A stretch of DNA of 39,148 nt from Thermoguttaceae bacterium (GTDB lineage: Bacteria; Planctomycetota; Planctomycetia; Pirellulales; Thermoguttaceae): assembly GCA_049515555.1 (NCBI GenBank), contig JBEKTY010000067.1, positions 1-39,148 of the forward strand, given 5' to 3'. The notes under the pieces are model-generated. The model searched no databases. It was given only the letters and a program-made list of their open reading frames with translations, and was not told the origin of the DNA. This document shows, in pieces, positions 3,888 to 34,600 of the stretch. Within the stretch, counting starts at the first letter, position 1. Every line of letters begins with the position of its first letter. Both the position numbers and the translations under genes were made by a program.

Positions 3888-4358
3888 TTAGCTCGTCTGA
3901 ATCTGGATCTTCCTGACTTCGGGCTTCTTCTCCTCGGGCAGTTGCAGCTTGAAGGTCAGCGTCAGGATGCCGTCCTTAAGCTCCGCCACGGGCTCGCCCT
4001 CGATGTTCTCCGGCAGACGAAGCTGCCGCTTGAACGAGCCGTAGGACAGCTCGCGGATGTGATACTGCTCCGCGCTCTTCTCGCCGTTGGTCTTGCTCGT
4101 GCCCGAGATCTCCAGAACGCCCTCCGGCAAAATCTGGACGTTGATCTGCTCGGGCGGGTAGCCCGCCACGGTGGTCTTCACCACCAGGTGGCCGTCGTTG
4201 GTCGTGTAGGCGTCCAGCGGCGGGAAGTTGGCCTTGCTCTTCACCCCGTCGGTGAAGTCCTGGCCGAACACGTCGTTGAGCATGCGGTCGAGTTGCCGCG
4301 AGAGTGGGCCGAACAGCTCGTCCCGGGAAACAGGGCGCAATCGCAAAGTACCGAACAT
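3888..4358 (-). CDS. Hsp20/alpha-crystallin family small heat-shock protein
   Basis: The ORF frame runs 3888-4472. An internal ATG at 4358 is preceded by a strong SD (aggagg). The protein starts MFGTLRLRP...; the alpha-crystallin domain pattern (GHLVVKTTVAGY ... ILPEGVLEISG ... AELKDGILTLTF) is recognisable. Confidence 0.9.
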   Translation of the reverse strand: MFGTLRLRPVSRDELFGPLSRQLDRMLNDVFGQDFTDGVKSKANFPPLDAYTTNDGHLVVKTTVAGYPPEQINVQILPEGVLEISGTSKTNGEKSAEQYHIRELSYGSFKRQLRLPENIEGEPVAELKDGILTLTFKLQLPEEKKPEVRKIQIQTS

Positions 4359-4467: not shown

Positions 4468-4563
4468 TTCAACGAGAATCATAAAGGAGCAACCTCCGTG
4501 CCAAACCCGGCGCCTTTTCCACAGCGGTTCGACACGCTACAATCGCGCCCGCAATCAACAGTC

Positions 4564-6018
4564 ATGTTAACGCTCATCAACAGCAATCGCATGCTGCCGC
4601 CGATCGCCCCGCTCGGGCTCGATTATGTGGGGGCGGCCGTGCGCCAAGCGGGGATCGAGGTCGATTTGCTCGACCTGTGCCTGGCAGACAATCCGGCCGG
4701 CGCGGTGCGGCACTACTTCCACACTCGGCAGCCCGAGTTGATTGGCGTCTCGTTTCGCAACATCGACGATTGTTTCTGGCCCAGCGGGGCGTGGTTCGTC
4801 CCGGACCTCGGGCAACTCGTGGCCCGTGTGCGCGGGCTATCGGGTGCGCCCGTCGTGCTGGGCGGCGTCGGATATTCGATCCTTGCCGCCGACGTGCTCC
4901 GCGCCTCCGGGGCCGATTTCGGCATCCGCGGCGACGGCGAACAGGCCGTCGTGGAATTGCTCGCCGAGTTGCGAGGCCCAAGGCGCTGGGATCGGGTGAG
5001 CGGGCTGCTGTGGCAAGAGGATGGCATAGTGCACGAGAACCGCCCGGCCTGGCCTGGCACACTGGCCGTACCGGCCGCCCGCGACATGGTAGACAACCCG
5101 ACGTATTTCCGCCTGGGCGGGCAGATCGGCGTGGAGAGCAAGCGCGGCTGTAGCCGCCAGTGCAGCTATTGCGTCGATCCGCTGGCCAAGGGCCCGACCG
5201 TCCGCCTGCGGCCGCCTTCCGACGTGGCCGGCGAGATGGAAGGCTTGCTCCGGCAGGGGATCGACGTATTCCACCTCTGCGATGCGGAGTTTAACCTGCC
5301 GCCCGGCCACGCCCGCGACGTCTGCGACGAGCTGATCCGCCGCGGGATTGGTTCCCGTAGCCGGTGGTATGCCTACCTTGCCGTCCTGCCCTTCGACGCG
5401 GACCTGGCAGGGCGGATGGCCCGGGCGGGCTGCGTGGGCATCAACTTCACCAGCGATTCGGCCAGCCCCGCCATGCTCGCCAGCTACGGGCAGCCGCATC
5501 GGCAGGCGGACCTCCGCGCGGCGATCGGGCACTGCCGGCAGCACGGCATTGCCGTCATGTGCGACCTGCTCCTGGGCGGTCCCGGCGAGACCGTCGACAG
5601 CGTTACGCAGTCCATCCGTTTCTTTCAGCAGGCCGGGCCGGATTGCGTGGGGGCGGCCCTGGGGCTTCGGCTCTATCCGTCAACGCGCATCACGGCCACG
5701 GTCGCCCAGGAAGGCCCGTGGGAGAGCAACCCCAGCATCCGCCGCCATTACGAGGGCCCGATCCATCTGCTGCGGCCCACGTTCTATATCTCAAGCCTGC
5801 TGGGCGAGCGGCCGGCCCGGTTGGTACGCGATCTGGTCGCCGGCGACCCGCGCTTCTTCGAGCCGGAAGAGGAAACCCCGGCCGCCGATCGGCCCGGCAT
5901 CGCGGGCGACCACAACTACAACGCCAACCGATCGTTGGCCAATGCAATACGTTCCGGCGCCCGGGGTGCATACTGGGATATTCTGCGAACTGGAAAAGGT
6001 GTCAGGAACCGTTTCTGA
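4564..6018 (+). CDS. B12-binding-domain radical SAM protein
   Basis: The ORF frame runs 4402-6018. The internal ATG at 4564 gives MLTLINSNRMLPPIAPLGLDYVGAA..., an N-terminal B12-binding-like Rossmann segment. The radical SAM motif CSRQCSYC (Cx3Cx2C) is present. Confidence 0.85.
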   Translation: MLTLINSNRMLPPIAPLGLDYVGAAVRQAGIEVDLLDLCLADNPAGAVRHYFHTRQPELIGVSFRNIDDCFWPSGAWFVPDLGQLVARVRGLSGAPVVLGGVGYSILAADVLRASGADFGIRGDGEQAVVELLAELRGPRRWDRVSGLLWQEDGIVHENRPAWPGTLAVPAARDMVDNPTYFRLGGQIGVESKRGCSRQCSYCVDPLAKGPTVRLRPPSDVAGEMEGLLRQGIDVFHLCDAEFNLPPGHARDVCDELIRRGIGSRSRWYAYLAVLPFDADLAGRMARAGCVGINFTSDSASPAMLASYGQPHRQADLRAAIGHCRQHGIAVMCDLLLGGPGETVDSVTQSIRFFQQAGPDCVGAALGLRLYPSTRITATVAQEGPWESNPSIRRHYEGPIHLLRPTFYISSLLGERPARLVRDLVAGDPRFFEPEEETPAADRPGIAGDHNYNANRSLANAIRSGARGAYWDILRTGKGVRNRF

Positions 6019-7323: not shown

Positions 7324-8903
7324 GGCAATTTACGACTTGCGCATGGGGCGCCGCAGCCGCCGGGTTTCAAAGCCCGGGCCGACGGCGCGACGGCAAGGCC
7401 TCCCTTGGATGTGCAACGCAATTCCGCGGGCATGGCCAGCCCCACGGCGTAAACGGCGTCGATCGTCTCGTCGAGCGGGATGAAGTTCGTGTACCCGCCG
7501 AGCCCAAGGTCGGCATTGACAAAGGCGCCGGCGGCGGCGGCCGCGTTGCGGGTGTGACAGGGAATCTCGACCATGCCCTGCACAAGGTCGCAGACGCTGC
7601 CCATGGTGTTCTGAAAACTGATCGCGGCCGCATCGCAGGCCTGGCGGGCCGTGCCGCCGACGGCGTCCACGACCGCGGCGGCGGCCATGGCGCCGGAGGC
7701 CCCGATCTCCACCTGGCAACCCGCCACCTCCGCGGCAAAGGTTCCGCGGATCGCCAAGATCGTGCCGACGGCGCCGGCCGCCAGCAGGGCCAGCCCGATT
7801 TGCTCGCGGGTCAACGAGCGCTCCTCGGCCAGCGTCACGAGCACGGCCGGAATAACGCCCGCGGAGCCGCCGGTGGGCGCGGCGCACACCACGCCCATCG
7901 CGGCATTCACGTGCATCACGGCCAGGGCCCGTGCCGCCGCCCGCGTGTGCGGGCTCCGCGCGGAAAGGCGCGATTCCGCCTCCGCCTGGAAAATGGCCCC
8001 GGCACAGGCGGGCAGCAGTTGCAGGCCGGTGAAGTTCGGGTCCAGCCCGCTCTGGACCGATCGCGCCATGATGTCGTAGCGCCGCAGCATTTCCGCCATA
8101 ACGTCTGCCGGGCTGATGCCCAGCAACTGTGCCTCGTAGGCCAGCGCCAGTCGGCCCAGCGAAAGGCCCAGTCGTTCGGCGCGCTGCACCATCTCGGCCG
8201 CACTTGAGAACTGGGGCTGGCCCGCTTGCACGAAGTAAACCGGCGTGGATTCCCACACCCGGGCGCTCGGGTCCCTGGCACGCAGCTCGCCGCGGAAGGT
8301 CGCCGGCAACGCGGCCTTGCGTCGGGCCGTCAGTCGCACCCGGCCATTCTCGCCAGAGTCGATTGTGCTTTCCAAGACCTGGCCATCGCCTGCGAGCAGC
8401 CCGCCGGCGGCGCCGGCTGTATCGGCAGAGACTTCCAGCAGCGTCTCGTAAGCCGCACCGTTGAACCGCACCGGGCGGCCGTTCAGGCTGGTAATCTGCA
8501 CTTCCCCGCCGCCGATGGAGCGTGCCGCCAGACGCAATGTAGAACCGTCGGCCGCAGTGAGAGCCATTTCCACCGTGTTCGGATGGTCCGGCTGGGCAAG
8601 CTTCCGGACCTCGAAGCTGATTTCCATCCCGGCCTGCGGCGCGTCGCCCAGCGCAGTAAAAAACGATTCGTCGGTCAACGGCTTGCCCAGCAGTCCCATG
8701 GCAAAGCCGCGGTCGGCCCCCTGCGCGGCGTAGGTGACGGAGTAAGAGCCGGCCGGGTCGAAGGCCAACGCCGCCCGGCGCGGCGCGCCTCCCAGAATCG
8801 AACGGGCCATGCAGGCGATGTGAAACGCGCCCGCCGTGTGCGAGCTGGACGGCCCGCGCATCACCGGACCGAGCACATGATTGAGGATACTGACGGCCCT
8901 CAT
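7320..8903 (-). CDS. sdaA: L-serine dehydratase, iron-sulfur dependent, single-chain (beta+alpha fused)
   Basis: 527-aa ORF. The N-terminal ...GPVMRGPSSSHTAG... motif matches the beta segment and ...PTGGSAGVIPAVL... the alpha segment. It is translationally coupled to the downstream OCD-family gene. Confidence 0.9.
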   Translation of the reverse strand: MRAVSILNHVLGPVMRGPSSSHTAGAFHIACMARSILGGAPRRAALAFDPAGSYSVTYAAQGADRGFAMGLLGKPLTDESFFTALGDAPQAGMEISFEVRKLAQPDHPNTVEMALTAADGSTLRLAARSIGGGEVQITSLNGRPVRFNGAAYETLLEVSADTAGAAGGLLAGDGQVLESTIDSGENGRVRLTARRKAALPATFRGELRARDPSARVWESTPVYFVQAGQPQFSSAAEMVQRAERLGLSLGRLALAYEAQLLGISPADVMAEMLRRYDIMARSVQSGLDPNFTGLQLLPACAGAIFQAEAESRLSARSPHTRAAARALAVMHVNAAMGVVCAAPTGGSAGVIPAVLVTLAEERSLTREQIGLALLAAGAVGTILAIRGTFAAEVAGCQVEIGASGAMAAAAVVDAVGGTARQACDAAAISFQNTMGSVCDLVQGMVEIPCHTRNAAAAAGAFVNADLGLGGYTNFIPLDETIDAVYAVGLAMPAELRCTSKGGLAVAPSARALKPGGCGAPCASRKLP

Positions 8904-28890: not shown

Positions 28891-30231
28891 ATGAGCGCCA
28901 GTCACAGGGCCCTCGTCGAGGACCTGGAACAAGCCTTGGCCCAACTGCCGATGTTCGACGTACACACGCACCTGGTGGGCGGGCGGCTCGGCGCCCGCGG
29001 CCTGCACGACATCATCTTGTACCACATGGTCGTCAGCGACCTGTACGCGGCCGGCTGTCCCAGCGGGGCGCGGCTCACGCAGTATCCCGGCTGGCCCGAG
29101 AAGGCCGAGGCCCACGCGCGGATCGAGGAGGCCCTGCCCTACCTGCCGCGGATCCGCAACACGAGCTGCGCCTGGATGGTGCGGATCATTCTGCGGGACC
29201 TGTACGATTGGCACGAGCCGATCACCGAGGGCAACTGGCGCCGCCTGGACGAAATCATTCGCCGCCGGGCCGACGACCGCGCCTGGCAGCATTCGATCTT
29301 CGACCGCCTGAACATTCGCCGCACGTGCGCGGAGTACGCCCGCCGGGGCCCGGGCGAAGACGACGCCCGGCTGCAATACTCGCTGGAGTGGGCCTTCTTC
29401 ACGCGCTGTCAATGGGGCGAGTTCGACACCGCGCTGTACGAGCTGGAACACTGCTGGGGGCGGCAGCCCGAGCCCCCCTCGCCGATCGGCGGGCAGCGGC
29501 CGCCCAGCCAGCGCGTCGTTCGCAGCCTGGAAGACGTGCACGCGGCGATCGAGTATTACGTCAACACGATCCCCTACGAGCAGCTTATAACCACGGCCAC
29601 CACCGTATCGACCGACATCGACTATCGCCCGGTGGGCGACGGCGAGATGGCCGCCGCCCTCCGGCGGCGGGAGCAGGCCGGCCCCGCCGAGCGCGACATT
29701 TATTCATCCTACATCAACGAAGCCTTCCTGACGGCCCTGGAGAAACACGCCGACAGGATCGTCTTCCAGTTCAGCGTGGGCGCCGAGCCCATGCCCTATG
29801 AGACCGCCTGTATCCTCTACCAGCGGACGATCAGGCAATTGGCCGAGATGATCGGGCGGCATCCGCGGCTGCACTTCCAGTGCTTCCTGGCCGCGCGGCA
29901 CGCCAACCAGGCCTTCTGCACGCTCGCCCGCGAGTTGCCCAACCTGAGCCTGGCTGGCTATTGGTGGCACAACTTCTTTCCCCACAGCATCCGGCAAGTC
30001 ATCGCCGAACGGCTCGACATGCTGCCGCTCAACAAGCAGATCGGGTTCTTCTCCGACGCCTATTGCGTGGAGTGGGTCTACGGCAAGGCGCGGATGGCGC
30101 AGAAGCAGTTGGCCCGCGTGCTGGCGGAAAAGATCGAACAAGGCCAGTACACGCGCGACGAGGCCCTGGCGATCGCGGCCACCATCCTCTACGACACGCC
30201 CCGCGAGCTGCTGCACATGGCTCCCGGTTGA
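28891..30231 (+). CDS. Glucuronate isomerase (UxaC)-like / amidohydrolase-superfamily protein (distant)
   Basis: The ORF frame runs 28609-30231. The ATG at 28891 follows ccggagg. The N-terminal FDVHTHL metal-binding motif is present. The C-terminal block GYWWHNFF...IGFFSDAYCVEWVYGKARMAQKQLARVLAEKIEQGQ aligns by eye with the E. coli UxaC C-terminus (GSGWWFNDQ...[20 protein letters not shown]...). Confidence 0.55.
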   Translation: MSASHRALVEDLEQALAQLPMFDVHTHLVGGRLGARGLHDIILYHMVVSDLYAAGCPSGARLTQYPGWPEKAEAHARIEEALPYLPRIRNTSCAWMVRIILRDLYDWHEPITEGNWRRLDEIIRRRADDRAWQHSIFDRLNIRRTCAEYARRGPGEDDARLQYSLEWAFFTRCQWGEFDTALYELEHCWGRQPEPPSPIGGQRPPSQRVVRSLEDVHAAIEYYVNTIPYEQLITTATTVSTDIDYRPVGDGEMAAALRRREQAGPAERDIYSSYINEAFLTALEKHADRIVFQFSVGAEPMPYETACILYQRTIRQLAEMIGRHPRLHFQCFLAARHANQAFCTLARELPNLSLAGYWWHNFFPHSIRQVIAERLDMLPLNKQIGFFSDAYCVEWVYGKARMAQKQLARVLAEKIEQGQYTRDEALAIAATILYDTPRELLHMAPG

Positions 30232-30300
30232 GCCCAGGCGAATGTCATACTTGACGAACCAAAAGAGAAGCCCTCGGCGACGCTGGAAGACGACGGCATT

Positions 30301-30441
30301 CTAGCCGCCGGCCTTCTTCAGCTTCCTAGCCTTCTTCTTTGGCTTAGCCTGGAGCAGCCGTTTGACGGCCTCTTCAAAGGGCAGGTCGATTTTGTTGCTG
30401 TGCGGCCCGTTCCTGGCGCTCACAGCAGTGTGCTTCTTCAT
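30301..30441 (-). CDS. Small lysine-rich ORF (46 aa, MKKHTAVSARNGPHSNKIDLPFEEAVKRLLQAKPKKKARKLKKAGG). It overlaps the 3' end of the upstream gene in another frame. It is either a separate small protein or the true C-terminus after a frameshift
   Basis: Translated by hand from the minus strand. It starts inside the final 67 nt of the 166-aa ORF and has a basic C-terminal tail. Confidence 0.25.
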   Translation of the reverse strand: MKKHTAVSARNGPHSNKIDLPFEEAVKRLLQAKPKKKARKLKKAGG

Positions 30442-30874
30442 GGCCGGATCGCCGTCGCCTCATGATTGTGACAACCTCTCCATACGCACCGTCCGCCAAC
30501 ACTTCCGGTGTGGCGTGGTTTATATCGTCCTCCGGACCAAGCTTGCTTGTCCACGTACCGTCCGCAATTAGTTGACGGGCCGCGTGTGTATACATGCCCT
30601 CACGACCATAGACAGCGATCCTTTCGTATTCCGGTTCGCACGCGGCGGAATCGCAGGCAACATATCCGTACCGCTCAAAGACGCGAACGAGCGATTGAAC
30701 TTTGTAGTTGCAGTAAGGCGGACCGACGGGCCAAAAGCGGCCTGTTACGGGCTCCCACCATTCCCCCCGCGCACCGCAGGCATGCGCGATACAGTTTTCA
30801 TCGGGTACCGGATCGCTGGTCAGGCGATAGTTACCCGTTCGCATGTTGGGGAAGTCTGCAAGGTTAATCGTCAC
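30374..30874 (-). CDS. Hypothetical 166-aa protein with conserved Cys/His positions (possible papain-like Cys-His hydrolase fold; unassigned)
   Basis: GTG start overlapping the upstream stop (GTGA), so it is translationally coupled. The motifs DENCIAHACG, GMYTHAARQL and GTWTSKLG...DDINH suggest a Cys/His catalytic arrangement. The C-terminal 20 aa may be a frame artefact. Confidence 0.5.
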   Translation of the reverse strand: MTINLADFPNMRTGNYRLTSDPVPDENCIAHACGARGEWWEPVTGRFWPVGPPYCNYKVQSLVRVFERYGYVACDSAACEPEYERIAVYGREGMYTHAARQLIADGTWTSKLGPEDDINHATPEVLADGAYGEVVTIMRRRRSGHEEAHCCERQERAAQQQNRPAL

Positions 30875-31614
30875 TTAGCGTACCCGTTTCCTTTACCCCA
30901 GGCTAGCCAGGCGTTGGCAATTTCTCGGAGCTTTCCCCAAGACTCCCGAGGAACTGGATCGCTGCCCGTGATGGCACGCAGCGCCCAGTCCCAGTGATCG
31001 GGTCGTTCTCGCATTTCTTCGAGCAGCAACGGAATCGCGCGGTCTCCCATGCCGATTATCTGCTGGTACGCGGGATGTATCACCAGGTCTGTCAGCTTGG
31101 AGCTGTGGCCGCGATCGGATTTCCAGACAGCGACCAGATTGCTGAAACGTTGCCGCACCGCCTCATGCACCGGCTCTGGCAAACACCCCTCACTCCCACG
31201 CATGGCCTCTCGGATTCGCAGCGCCAGGGACCAGGCCGACTTCGGTGTCACTCCTAGCTCGCGGGCGATCTGGCGGCTGCTGACGCCCTTGCTGCTGCTG
31301 GTCATCAGGTCGAGGGCCCTAAGCCATTTGGACAGCGGCAGCTTGCTTTCCTCGAAGATCGTACCGACCCTTACCGTGAATTGTCGGCGGCAATCCTTGC
31401 ACTTCTTCAGCCCTAGCCGACCAGGACTCTTGCTTCCCGGCTTAGCGACAAGTGGGTAGCCTTTCCCGCCACAATAAGGGCAAACCGGAACACCATTTGG
31501 CCAGCGTTGAGTCTCCAGGAAGCACCGTGCCCGGCCCTCGTCTGTAAAAAGCGCCGAAAGGTTGGTAGGATACGCCTTGGCGGCAGTTCCGGTAAGGGGA
31601 TTCTTCGCGGTCAT
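30871..31614 (-). CDS. Zinc-ribbon + HTH protein whose N-terminus resembles an IS1595-type transposase N-terminal DNA-binding module, fused to a non-DDE ~105-aa C-terminal domain (domesticated transposase-derived regulator candidate)
   Basis: The ORF frame runs 30871-31710. The ATG at 31614 follows gaggaag. The pattern ETQRWPNGVPVCPYCGG...KCKDCRRQFTVRVGTIFEESKLPLSKWLRALDLMTSSSKGVSSRQIARELGVTPKSAW matches, by memory, the Zn_Tnp_IS1595 + HTH pattern (LRWPNG..CP.CG....C..C...FS...GTIF...KLPL.KW...YLM...KGISA.QL...LGV..KTAW). There is no EVDETY/DDE block afterwards. Confidence 0.6.
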   Translation of the reverse strand: MTAKNPLTGTAAKAYPTNLSALFTDEGRARCFLETQRWPNGVPVCPYCGGKGYPLVAKPGSKSPGRLGLKKCKDCRRQFTVRVGTIFEESKLPLSKWLRALDLMTSSSKGVSSRQIARELGVTPKSAWSLALRIREAMRGSEGCLPEPVHEAVRQRFSNLVAVWKSDRGHSSKLTDLVIHPAYQQIIGMGDRAIPLLLEEMRERPDHWDWALRAITGSDPVPRESWGKLREIANAWLAWGKGNGYAK

Positions 31615-31678
31615 AGCTTCCTCGCCTACCCACAATTGTACCCTGATGATCGGGTTTGCCAAGTATAACATTCCACAG

Positions 31679-34600
31679 ATGATACTTGCCCCCCTCTTGC
31701 TCTTGTTCACCGGTGCACTGCTGCCATCGGCCGTTCCGCTGTCCGCGGCGACGCCAGAGCCGGTCGCTATTGCGGCCTTGCCTAAACTGCACAGCGGCGT
31801 GCCAGCCTATCCGGTTCCGTTCATGGCCGTCGCCCGCACGCCGCATACAATCGCCCCCTTGCCCGGCAGGGCCATCGACATCCAAACCGACTTCGGCTAT
31901 CCGGCCGGTTTTTCCGGACTGGTGGACGCGGCGATCGGATCGGTGGGCTACCCCGGCTATCGCAATTTCTCGAACCTGGACATCGCCTACGACGCCGAGA
32001 AGCTTTGCCTGCTGGTTTGCGTGCCCTATCCTTACGGGCGGAAGACGCGGGCCCAGGCCACCGAGCCCTCGCCCGAGCTGCTCGCCGACGACGTCTTCGA
32101 GGTGCTCATCGATCCGCGCGACGAGCAGGGCCGCTCGAAGGGCCCGCTGTATCGCGTCGTGGGCAACGCCGCCGGCGTGTGCCGGATCGACCGCGACCTG
32201 CCGCAAATCGGCCAGCCGCACCAGGCGTGGCAGGCGGCGGTAAAATACGGCAGCATGATGTGGGACCCCATGGGAAGCTGGATGGCCGCCGTGCAGATTC
32301 CCTTCCACGATCTGGGCGGGGCGCCCAAAGACGGCCAGGTGTGGGGCATCCAGGCCGCCCTCCGCTACGTCGATCCGAAGATCACCGCCGTGCTGTCGCC
32401 GGCCGACGATTTTACCGATCGCGCGCGCTTCGCCCGGCTGCGCTTCGACGCCGGGCGGAGGGCCAATTACCGCTGCCATTGGCTCTCGGCCGACGAGATC
32501 AAGCAGGGGACCTTCTGCGTGGGCGGCATCTTCAGCAACGGCGCCCATGAGCCGGCATGGTTCGACGGCCGCGTGACGCTGCAGAAGGGCGATCGGCCGC
32601 TGGGCGGCGGAACCTTCGCCCACGCCGCCCAGCCGCTCTCGAAATACGACGGCGACATGGAGCCCTGTCGATTCCCGTCGCAAGCCTCCGGTCCCACCCA
32701 GCGCGACACTGTCGCCCGGTTGGTAGTGACCGACCGCCAGGCCGCAACGATCGTGTACGACCAGTTCCTGCCGTACTGGCAAATGGCCCCCGGCGAGCGC
32801 GACTGGCTGAAGCGGCATTTCGCCAGGGAATTCACCTTCCACGCCGGCCCTTATCCGTCCCGCGGCGCGATCGACTACCGCATCGACTGCCAGACGTTGA
32901 TGGAGGCCCTGCCCCAGGCGGCCCGGGCCGTGGTGACGGTCACTAGCGGCGGCCGGCAGTTGGCCCGGCAGGAACAGCCGCTGCCCAAGGACGGCAAGAT
33001 CGCCGAGACGATCAACGTCGGCGCCATGACCGACGGGGCGACGTATGAGATCGCCGCGGCCATCGTCCGCAGCGACTCTCAGCCCCTCAGTACGCAGCGC
33101 GAAACCTTCACGCGGAAGGTCATGCCGTTCGAGACCGCCCCGCCGGCCGGTGTGGCGGACCTGGTGTCGCCGCCCTTCACGCCGCCCAAGATCGGCCAGG
33201 ACAGTATCGCCTGCATCGGGCGGACCTATACGCACGGCCGGCAAGGCCTCTTGGAAAGCCTCGTCGCCGCCGGCCGGGAGCTGCTCGCCGCTCCGGCCAC
33301 TCTGAAGGTGAAGGTCGGCGATCAGGCCGCCGTGGCCCTGGCCGGCGACGCGCCCACGCTGGCCGCCCACGGAAAAGGGCAGGCTGCCTGCCGGCAGACG
33401 TTCGCCGGAGCGGGGCTGAAAATGACGGTCGACGGCCGTTTCGACTACGACGGTTTCTACCGCTTCTCGGTGCTACTCGCGCCCGGCGCGGCGGCGGTGG
33501 ACCTCAAGCAGTGCTACTTGGAGCTGCCCATCCGGGAGTCGCACGCCACGCTCATGGACGCGCCCGTGGAGTGGATGTCGAAGGACTGGCGCCGCTCGAC
33601 CGGCTTTCTTCCCGCGGCGCAAGGCCGCCTATGGGACTCCAAGCGATTCCCCTTCGCCGTGCGGGAGCGCAAGGGCAACATGCCGCCCTACTGCTGGATC
33701 GGCGACGACGACCGCGGCATTGGCTACTCCTGCGCCTCGGACCAGGGCATGCACAACGACGACGCCCTGCCCGCCGTAACCATCGATCGCGAAGGCCGGG
33801 CGGTGGTCTTGCGGGCCTGGTTCGTCAACAAGCCCCTCACGCTCGGTGCGCCGCGGACTTTCCAATTCGCCTTGCAGGCCAGCCCCTATAAACCCCTCGA
33901 TCCTCAACACCGCCTGTGGCGCTGCGGCGTGGCCCGGCCCGAGTGCTGCTACGGACCGTCTGGCCGCTACTTTCACTCGGGCTGGGGAATCGGCTGCTAT
34001 TATCCGACGTACGGGCGATTCCTGGACCTCGACCGGAACGCCGAGGCCATCCGCCGCGTCCGCCGCTCGGGCTACGACTTCATCGCCGCCTCCGCCTCCG
34101 CCTGCTCCGAGTGCGGCGGCACACCCGAGTACCAGCAGTTCTGGCGCGAGTGGGGTAGCGCCCTGGGCTGGGACAAAATGCCCCTGGGTCCCTTGCCGGA
34201 ATGGATGCAGAAACTTATGAAAGACTCGGGCCGGCCCTACACCGGCTACGTGGCCGTGGAAAGCGCCTCCAATAGCGCCCCCAGCAACTTGGACTATCGT
34301 GCCTGGTGGTTCCAGCAGGTGGCCGCCAATTGCGACACGAGCATGATCTACCAGGACAATCCGCCCTACGGCTACTTCGATCAGCCGGCCGTGGGCTACG
34401 GCTACACCCGCGACGACGGCCTGCGCGAGCCGACCTCGGCCACCTGGAACGCGCGGACCTTTATGCGACGGGCCCTGCACATAGCCGTCGAGAGCGGCAC
34501 CCGCAACCCGGCCCCGGGTGTCTATCCCAACATCTGCGGCTCGGCCCAAGCGGGCCGCAGCTTCTGCTTCCGCGGCCTCATAGGCGAAGACCTCGAGTCC

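Follow-up and report, generated by a model that had tools for sequence, protein, structure and literature searches.

The subject of this analysis is a 1,434-bp island that carries three tightly packed open reading frames (ORFs; genes 1, 2 and 3) on the minus strand of a 39,148-nucleotide (nt) stretch of contig JBEKTY010000067.1, from a Thermoguttaceae bacterium; we refer to the whole stretch as the window. Judged from its sequence, the island is a member of the IS1595 family of insertion sequences (ISs) that is bounded by inverted repeats, has suffered an internal deletion and has no transposase. We consider it probable, if by no means assured, that this fossil, non-autonomous derivative carries a type II toxin–antitoxin-like, possibly abortive-infection, gene pair, made up of gene 2, which belongs to the Pfam family DUF7689, and the C-terminal domain of gene 1, here called C-dom. 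An earlier note on this DNA had described the three ORFs as a compact cassette built around a transposase-derived protein. Its ORFs, their domains and their translational coupling were borne out, but in place of a free-standing three-gene system around a domesticated transposase we found a two-gene core and a deleted mobile element, whose inverted repeats and foreign composition the note had missed.

A deleted IS1595-family element and its complete relative

The terminal inverted repeats of the island (IRL on the left and IRR on the right; Table 1) match one another at 18 of 21 positions, and the window holds two matches to the repeat motif, with none expected by chance. Both are homologous to the repeats of a complete IS1595-family element, L028 (2691-7351, 4,661 bp), which comes from another metagenome and was obtained by extending the contig of the transposase P0005; the IRL motif is also found 40-60 nt upstream of that transposase (L018-L021, L028). 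Besides the transposase, L028 encodes three passengers (Table 1), a cargo that looks defence-like. Window positions 31674-31199 align to L028 2692-3168 at 72.5%, and 31101-30337 align to L028 6489-7249 at 64%, while the middle part of the L028 element, about 3.3 kb, is absent from the window. The composition of the island is foreign to its surroundings: its GC content is 58% as compared with 65% for the window, and GC at third codon positions is 0.58-0.67 in genes 1 and 2 and 0.81 in gene 3, as compared with 0.85-0.90 in the neighbouring genes. Because of the inverted repeats, the alignment to both ends of L028 without its middle, the lack of any remnant of the transposase's DDE catalytic domain (see below) and the foreign composition, we read the island as a deleted derivative of an IS1595-family element.

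The most plausible origin of gene 1 is a deletion that fused the transposase gene in frame to the C-dom part of the next gene, since the window aligns to both ends of L028 and lacks what lies between. The earlier note had held that the protein keeps only the zinc-ribbon and helix-turn-helix (HTH) module of an IS1595 transposase and that no DDE domain follows, and both points held up. Residues 1-145 are 76% identical to P0005, with the similarity ending near residue 149, where the DDE domain would start; a profile made from 59 intact relatives, run on all six frames of the island, detected no DDE domain, and Pfam and NCBIfam gave no match past profile position 53. The highly similar N-terminal 145 residues might suggest that gene 1 is no more than an IS1595 transposase carrying indels, but this reading is refuted by the DDE profile result, and the C-terminal 95 residues come from a different and very large family; we give it practically no credence.

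The same architecture, with a transposase N-terminal module joined to C-dom at other breakpoints, recurs in P0003 (locus L002), P0004 and P0025, and P0003 and P0004 are homologous to gene 1 over its full length (50% and 46% identity, respectively). The C-dom of gene 1 is 52-77% identical to small proteins, the upper value being reached with non-fused ones, as against 41-46% to P0003 and P0004; in turn, P0003 and P0004 share 77-79% identity in their N-domains with other intact transposases, as against 62-64% with gene 1. Because the breakpoints differ, and because the fused N-domains resemble intact transposases (76-79%) more closely than they do the other fusion lineage, the simplest reading would be at least two independent deletion fusions, with recombination with resident IS copies as the alternative. 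In L002 itself an inner IRL can still be recognised, together with a degenerate IRR, and a gene-3-like ORF overlaps the end of its DUF7689 gene.

Elements of this general kind are already known. Duplications of 8 bp and an N-terminal zinc finger are hallmarks of the IS1595 family (PMC8101967), and the concept of the "transporter IS" rests on its passenger-bearing members (Siguier, Gagnevin & Chandler 2009, cited in PMC3129680 and PMC8101967). With these the window copy shares the transposase N-terminal zinc ribbon, the terminal inverted repeats and the passenger genes between them, and L028 shares the DDE domain and the 8-bp duplication in addition; the window copy is unlike them in having no DDE domain, mutated repeat tips, no duplication and a transposase N-terminus fused to a passenger protein. 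It also resembles mobile insertion cassettes and other transposase-less IS derivatives (mentioned in PMC3129680), with the inverted repeats of a known IS around non-transposase genes and no transposase, but, being a single copy with mutated tips and no duplication, it shows no sign of remaining mobilisable. We found no literature report of a passenger set consisting of a restriction-modification (R-M)-like enzyme ending in C-dom, a DUF7689 protein and a gene 3 homologue. IS1595 transposase genes also lie near C-dom and DUF7689 genes in L035 and L038, where a search for the inverted-repeat consensus did not find it.

C-dom and DUF7689 as a two-gene core

Comparison among loci indicates that the core of the system is two genes, one for a C-dom protein and one for DUF7689, and that this pair is widespread without the transposase part. 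A C-dom gene abuts or overlaps the DUF7689 gene, directly upstream of it, in 12 of the 12 loci seeded with DUF7689 (L001, L003, L005, L006, L009-L013, L015, L016 and the window), a small sample; the DUF7689-seeded genome and metagenome scans, with their narrow back-translated patterns, yielded 3 and 5 loci. Most often the upstream gene overlaps by 1-4 nt, and across the wider set the junctions are overlaps of 1-7 nt or short gaps (L001-L006, L013, L015, L016, L028 and the P0190 contig), and DUF7689 is found downstream as well in loci that were seeded with C-dom, the transposase or gene 1 homologues (L002/P0003, the P0025 and P0190 contigs, L028). In the window, the GTG start of gene 2 overlaps the stop of gene 1 as GTGA, and the tail of gene 2 is overlapped by gene 3 over 68 nt; all three ORFs lie at exactly the coordinates first given for them, and the translational coupling proposed there is upheld, with co-occurrence of the homologues as a C-dom/DUF7689 pair elsewhere. 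On another planctomycete contig (L003), an XisI-family gene (4492-4698, minus strand) lies convergent to the pair and directly downstream of it.

The C-terminal domain of gene 1 had been called unassignable, and indeed no model in Pfam or NCBIfam covers C-dom. Among 1.84 billion cluster representatives (the counts are of clusters at 50% identity), its profile found 9,912 proteins with an E value of 1e-3 or less, of which 2,093 reached 1e-30 or less. The domain is predicted to be all-helical and HEAT-like, with a predicted local distance difference test (pLDDT) score of 92.9 for the structure model; the invariant positions include five tryptophans, and the motifs HPAYQQIIGMG, PDHWxWALRAITG and AWLxWG recur. 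In single-copy proteins it lies at the C-terminus or within about 25 residues of the end. It occurs as a stand-alone protein of ~100-110 residues with no N-terminal partner, and elsewhere behind a variety of N-termini: FitA-like ribbon-helix-helix (RHH), AF2212-like, HTH_3 and RHH_5 domains, coiled coils, and HicB-like and ParD-like segments that were recognised by eye only. Fusions to an R-M enzyme are found in P0090 and L028, and fusions to the IS1595 zinc ribbon and HTH in gene 1, P0003, P0004 and P0025. A further set of proteins (P0010, P0018, P0180, P0182-P0184) has two tandem copies of C-dom and no other domain. A tblastn search of the PLSDB plasmids with C-dom and DUF7689 found nothing.

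Residues 21-139 of gene 2 match DUF7689 (PF24738) with 102.2 bits, against a gathering threshold of 22.6, and its homologues form 59 clusters. The GTG start is backed by homologues whose sequences open with MTIN... at this point, and the unusual C-terminal tail (CCE...AQQ) is kept in close relatives. The structure prediction is confident (pLDDT 90.3): Cys28 (in the motif NC[IV]A) begins a helix (28-32) and His97 (in THAARQ) sits in a beta strand (94-101), each being present in at least 90% of the sequences, and W108, S110, K111, G113, D117 and H120 are conserved as well. On this model we regard gene 2 as a candidate Cys-His enzyme of putative papain-like fold, with its Cys and His in the canonical arrangement, which agrees with the Cys-His hydrolase-like fold first suggested for it. 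The Foldseek matches were not significant; those ranked at the top were USP deubiquitinases and AvrPphB. The closest known kinds would be cysteine hydrolases of the papain-like, NlpC/P60, CHAP and AvrPphB types, including the type VI amidase effector Tae3, which is paired with an immunity protein. Neither NLPC_P60, CHAP nor peptidase models in Pfam or NCBIfam matched gene 2, PDB sequence-profile searches found no relative, a scan of viral contigs found no close relatives of DUF7689, PHROGs held nothing for genes 2 and 3, and the literature search found no paper that mentions DUF7689. The earlier description of the combination as undescribed stands to that extent, but gene 2 does belong to a named Pfam family.

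The two partners differ in how they persist. In L007 (2905-3090) a 33-residue DUF7689 remnant lies beside an intact RHH–C-dom gene, and in L035 (4122-4469) a C-terminal DUF7689 fragment lies beside an intact C-dom; at both loci the putative toxin appears to be decaying first. Solitary C-dom genes, with no DUF7689, occur on four distinct phage-like IMG/VR contigs (Table 1). Within this small sample DUF7689 is never alone and C-dom often is, a pattern suggestive of the classical toxin/antitoxin signature, and the phage-borne solitary genes would fit antitoxin mimicry, possibly as decoy antitoxins.

Table 1. Positions and properties of the island, its parts, the complete element L028 and the solitary C-dom genes of phage-like contigs
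Feature	Position	Strand	Description
Window
Whole IS1595-derived element without transposase	30240..31673	-	1,434 bp; inverted repeats at both ends; collinear with both L028 ends; GC 58%
IRL, left terminal inverted repeat	31653..31673	-	GAATGTTATACTTGGCAAACC; 21 nt; holds the -35 box of the gene 1 promoter
Sigma-70-like promoter	31635..31662	-	TTGGCA, 16-nt spacer, TACAAT; 10/12 matches; overlaps IRL and reads into gene 1
Gene 1	31614->30871 (30871..31614)	-	247 aa; ATG start; chimera of transposase N-terminal DNA-binding module and C-dom
Gene 1, aa 25-78, IS1595 zinc ribbon	31381..31542	-	PF12760 (Zn_ribbon_IS1595), 29.6 bits against a cut-off of 25.4; CPYC and CKDC both intact
Gene 1, aa 90-140, transposase HTH region	31195..31347	-	NCBIfam NF033547, positions 2-53 of 215 only
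Gene 1, aa ~153-247, C-dom	30874..31158	-	~95 aa; predicted all-helical and HEAT-like; pLDDT 92.9
Gene 2	30874->30374 (30374..30874)	-	166 aa; DUF7689; candidate Cys-His enzyme with predicted papain-like fold
Gene 3	30441->30301 (30301..30441)	-	46 aa; conserved basic small protein
IRR, right terminal inverted repeat	30240..30260	+	GAATGTCATACTTGACGAACC; 21 nt; corresponds to L028 IRR 7328-7351
L028
Terminal repeats			CGGAATGTTATACTTGACAAACCC; 24 nt; 22/24 match
Target duplication			ATTCGCGA; perfect, 8 bp
Transposase			P0005; intact, 318 aa; zinc ribbon and DDE domain
Passenger 1			991 aa; weak HSDR_N, then N6_Mtase/Eco57I-like, then C-dom (146 bits); type IIG R-M-like
Passenger 2			DUF7689, 141 aa
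Passenger 3			47-aa ORF; gene 3 homologue, 70% identical over 40 aa
Phage-like contigs
Solitary C-dom, L037	3968-4276		Between DnaB-like helicase (phrog_19) and primase (phrog_47)
Solitary C-dom, L031	3992-4288		Near Rnl1-like RNA ligase (phrog_562); 139-kb contig
Solitary C-dom, L034	3860-4384		HicB-like N-terminus, recognised by eye
Solitary C-dom, L039	about 3990-4273

A proposed toxin–antitoxin-like function and its alternatives

From gene order and distribution, a toxin–antitoxin or defence role, which the earlier note had already considered, would fit best. In the complete relatives the order is IRL, transposase, a gene ending in C-dom, DUF7689, gene 3 and IRR, and the window copy is best read as having lost, through an internal deletion of ~3.3 kb, the transposase's DDE domain together with the body of the next gene, so that the zinc ribbon and HTH were joined in frame to C-dom. 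DUF7689 may be a cytoplasmic papain-like Cys-His hydrolase or transferase, harmful to the cell in its free form, and the HEAT-like C-dom would bind and neutralise it. The N-domain of gene 1 might bind, as its operator, the inverted repeat that overlaps its own promoter, which would make gene 1 an autoregulating antitoxin. Such a module would stabilise the element that carries it, or provide abortive-infection defence, or both. If DUF7689 is toxic without C-dom, only those deletions that keep C-dom expressed would survive, and this dependence would explain why in-frame fusions of C-dom to the first expressed ORF recur.

The position of the gene 1 promoter, with its -35 box inside IRL, is consistent with a functional module, and the homologous position in L028 and L018 reads TTGACA...TATAAT. 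The model for autoregulation is InsA of IS1, the Zn-finger/HTH N-terminal product of the IS1 transposase gene, which attaches to the ends of the IS and so represses both transcription and transposition. Residues 1 to ~149 of gene 1 would be the equivalent module, likewise without a catalytic domain and likewise with a promoter overlapping the terminal repeat. InsA, however, is what an active IS normally produces, whereas gene 1 is a chimera born of a deletion and has an extra C-terminal domain.

With type II toxin–antitoxin systems the pair shares two small co-directional genes with a stop/start overlap that are conserved together, and an upstream protein made of a variable N-terminus, in some cases of a DNA-binding type, and a conserved C-terminal partner domain. 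It is unlike them in that both protein families are uncharacterised and in that the antitoxin-like protein here borrows the transposase's own DNA-binding domain; among the type II systems described so far, we are aware of neither a papain-like toxin nor a HEAT-like antitoxin. For the L028 arrangement, in which the type IIG R-M-like enzyme encoded directly upstream of DUF7689 ends in C-dom, the PrrC-EcoprrI guard offers a parallel: there, a latent toxin is held by an R-M enzyme and is released when a phage inhibits restriction. The likeness is pure analogy, with no sequence relationship, and the window copy has no R-M part. Type II toxin–antitoxin modules are also known to be embedded in Tn3-family transposons (Lima-Mendez et al. 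2020, PMC7157771), where, as here, the module lies inside a transposable element beside transposition functions.

Several points weigh against this interpretation. The toxin, C-dom-binding and DNA-binding roles are predictions from genomic context; in most C-dom proteins the N-terminus is short and contains no DNA-binding domain that can be recognised; S110, D117 and H120 are all candidates for the third catalytic residue of gene 2; and none of the three proteins matched PADLOC-DB v2.0 at E values up to 1. The last point would also suit a non-toxic pair in which C-dom is an adaptor that docks the DUF7689 enzyme (a hydrolase or transferase) onto the binding target of the C-dom protein's N-terminus, such as DNA or an R-M enzyme, so that the pair modifies or processes a protein or a nucleic-acid-bound target, for example in the control of restriction or transposition, with neither addiction nor killing. 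HEAT-like repeats are generic protein-binding scaffolds, and the great diversity of the modules fused to C-dom, from the 991-residue R-M-like enzyme of L028 to coiled coils and tandem copies of itself, can be accommodated readily in this way. Nevertheless, the antitoxin-like gene order with overlapping stop and start codons, the RHH, AF2212-like, HTH or (by eye) HicB-like nature of some N-termini, the survival of C-dom alone but never of DUF7689, and the solitary C-dom genes on phage-like contigs disfavour it, because these four features are more typical of a neutraliser and its toxin; we regard an enzyme–adaptor pair as unlikely, though deserving of serious attention.

The state of the window copy must be set against our interpretation as well. 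The outer tip of IRR is mutated, as are the tips of the element's repeats overall; there is no target-site duplication, with the flanks GCCCAGGC and CACAGATG differing, also in shifted variants and for all plausible repeat boundaries; and the element was recovered only as a single copy, in the same genomic context in 7 of 7 contigs from several samples. From these features, together with its foreign composition, we read the window copy as a fossil; its arrival by transposition is suggested by analogy with L028. The same decay (degraded repeats are seen in L002 too) would be expected of a neutral relic, that is, a dead IS fragment whose ORFs are open by chance and whose gene 1 fusion is a deletion accident with no present function. 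Yet all three ORFs are intact despite the decayed ends, neither the zinc-ligand cysteines nor any of the conserved C-dom and DUF7689 residues have been lost, the promoter is preserved, and the fusion architecture recurs with other breakpoints in P0003/P0004 and P0025. Pairwise ratios of nonsynonymous to synonymous substitution (dN/dS) against relatives, where estimable, are 0.09-0.22, values that cannot tell selection before the deletion from selection after it. Because of these ratios, and because each of the three genes has homologues, the ORFs are real and conserved and none of them is a chance ORF, a possibility that the earlier note had allowed for genes 2 and 3; we judge a neutral relic improbable.

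The IS1595-family element with passengers, its transposase-less derivative and the type II toxin–antitoxin-like module are all of known kinds; what is new are the protein families, the chimera of a transposase domain and an antitoxin-like protein, and the phage-borne solitary copies. A more ambitious proposal, which we put forward as a tentative possibility, is that C-dom and DUF7689 form an unrecognised and very widespread family of anti-phage abortive-infection or toxin–antitoxin systems. A HEAT-like inhibitor would restrain a papain-like cysteine enzyme, either standing alone or fused to antitoxin-type DNA binders, to a type IIG restriction enzyme acting as a guard or to the DNA-binding domain of a transposase; the solitary copies of T4-like phages would be decoy antitoxins; and IS1595 elements would spread the module, with dependence on it shaping their decay such that only in-frame C-dom fusions survive. 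In the present analysis an unannotated family of ~9,900 clusters is tied to a domain of predicted papain-like fold in a concrete toxin/neutraliser hypothesis, and the new IS1595 passenger set, a restriction-like enzyme plus the pair, is further evidence for the carriage of defence or addiction genes by insertion sequences. The window element illustrates how an internal IS deletion can fuse the end-binding domain of a transposase to a passenger protein, a route to chimeric regulators; addiction, if true, would explain the persistence of such fusions after the death of the element. The solitary C-dom genes beside replication genes on T4-like phage contigs offer a lead on phage counter-defence.

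Gene 3 and the neighbourhood of the island

Gene 3 belongs to a family of six called proteins (P0322-P0327) of 44-47 residues, and so has 5 further called homologues; the core, NKIDLPFDEAVRRLLQAKPK, hardly varies among them, and the tail is basic. Identity to the 58-residue ORF that occupies the same position in L002 is 37%, and dN/dS against the L028 copy is 0.22. The three contexts that were inspected (the window, L028 and L002) are all IS1595-associated, one member (P0325) and the DUF7689 protein P0143 come from contigs of matching size (2.9 kb), and no gene 3 follows the pair at the other C-dom/DUF7689 loci examined; instead of being part of a free-standing three-gene system, it is seen only in IS1595-associated copies and on one short contig. 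We rejected the idea that gene 3 is a remnant of the transposase's C-terminal tail: the BLAST match to the tail of P0108 has an E value of 0.02 in a tiny database, and gene 3 ORFs score below 0 bits in the transposase profile. That it might be a spurious ORF overlapping the gene 2 tail, which is conserved in its own frame, is contradicted by the homologues in L028 and L002 and by P0322-P0327. One homologue, P0327, is recorded on 12 contigs, the longest of 15.7 kb, which hints at a multicopy and possibly still mobile version of the element.

Domain matches confirmed the flanks as first described, with sugar-catabolic genes on one side and a large secreted-protein gene on the other. The former, on the plus strand, comprise genes for a PfkB kinase, a DeoC aldolase and a xylose-isomerase-like TIM barrel protein and a 444-residue ORF; the latter encodes a 1,384-residue protein with a GH123_N domain and is divergent from gene 1. 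Since gene 1 and the secreted-protein gene lie only 31-64 nt apart, and IRL overlaps the 5′ end of the latter, gene 1 could be conceived of as a domesticated transposase that serves as a host transcription factor, regulating either the sugar operon or the GH123-like gene while DUF7689 plays an accessory part. The pair is found in unrelated neighbourhoods elsewhere, however, the island is compositionally foreign, and an L028-type element accounts for the architecture; we would be surprised if gene 1 proved to be such a host regulator.

IRL overlaps the 5′ end of the GH123_N gene in the region of window positions 31646-31682. Gene callers start this gene at an ATG at 31646, inside the element, such that the repeat encodes part of its N-terminus (MIGFAKYNIPQ...); 5 nt beyond the repeat, at 31679, is a second ATG that opens directly onto a hydrophobic, signal-like segment. 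The plus strand also has a weak promoter-like site facing outward at 31656-31683. Both the promoter and the N-terminus of the GH123_N gene may have been altered by the insertion.

On the other side, the 444-residue ORF that closes the sugar-gene cluster (28897-30231, plus strand) has no Pfam match at E ≤ 1e-3, yet is present in public gene calls. A supposed synteny with L003, where a UxaC gene precedes the pair, was dropped, as this ORF shows no similarity to UxaC. Annotation of the locus differs between pipelines: for L022-L026, whose DNA is identical to window 30101-31800, the public calls include the 46-residue gene 3 and omit the GTG-start, 166-residue DUF7689 gene, whereas those for L027 do the opposite, with the DUF7689 gene included and gene 3 left out.

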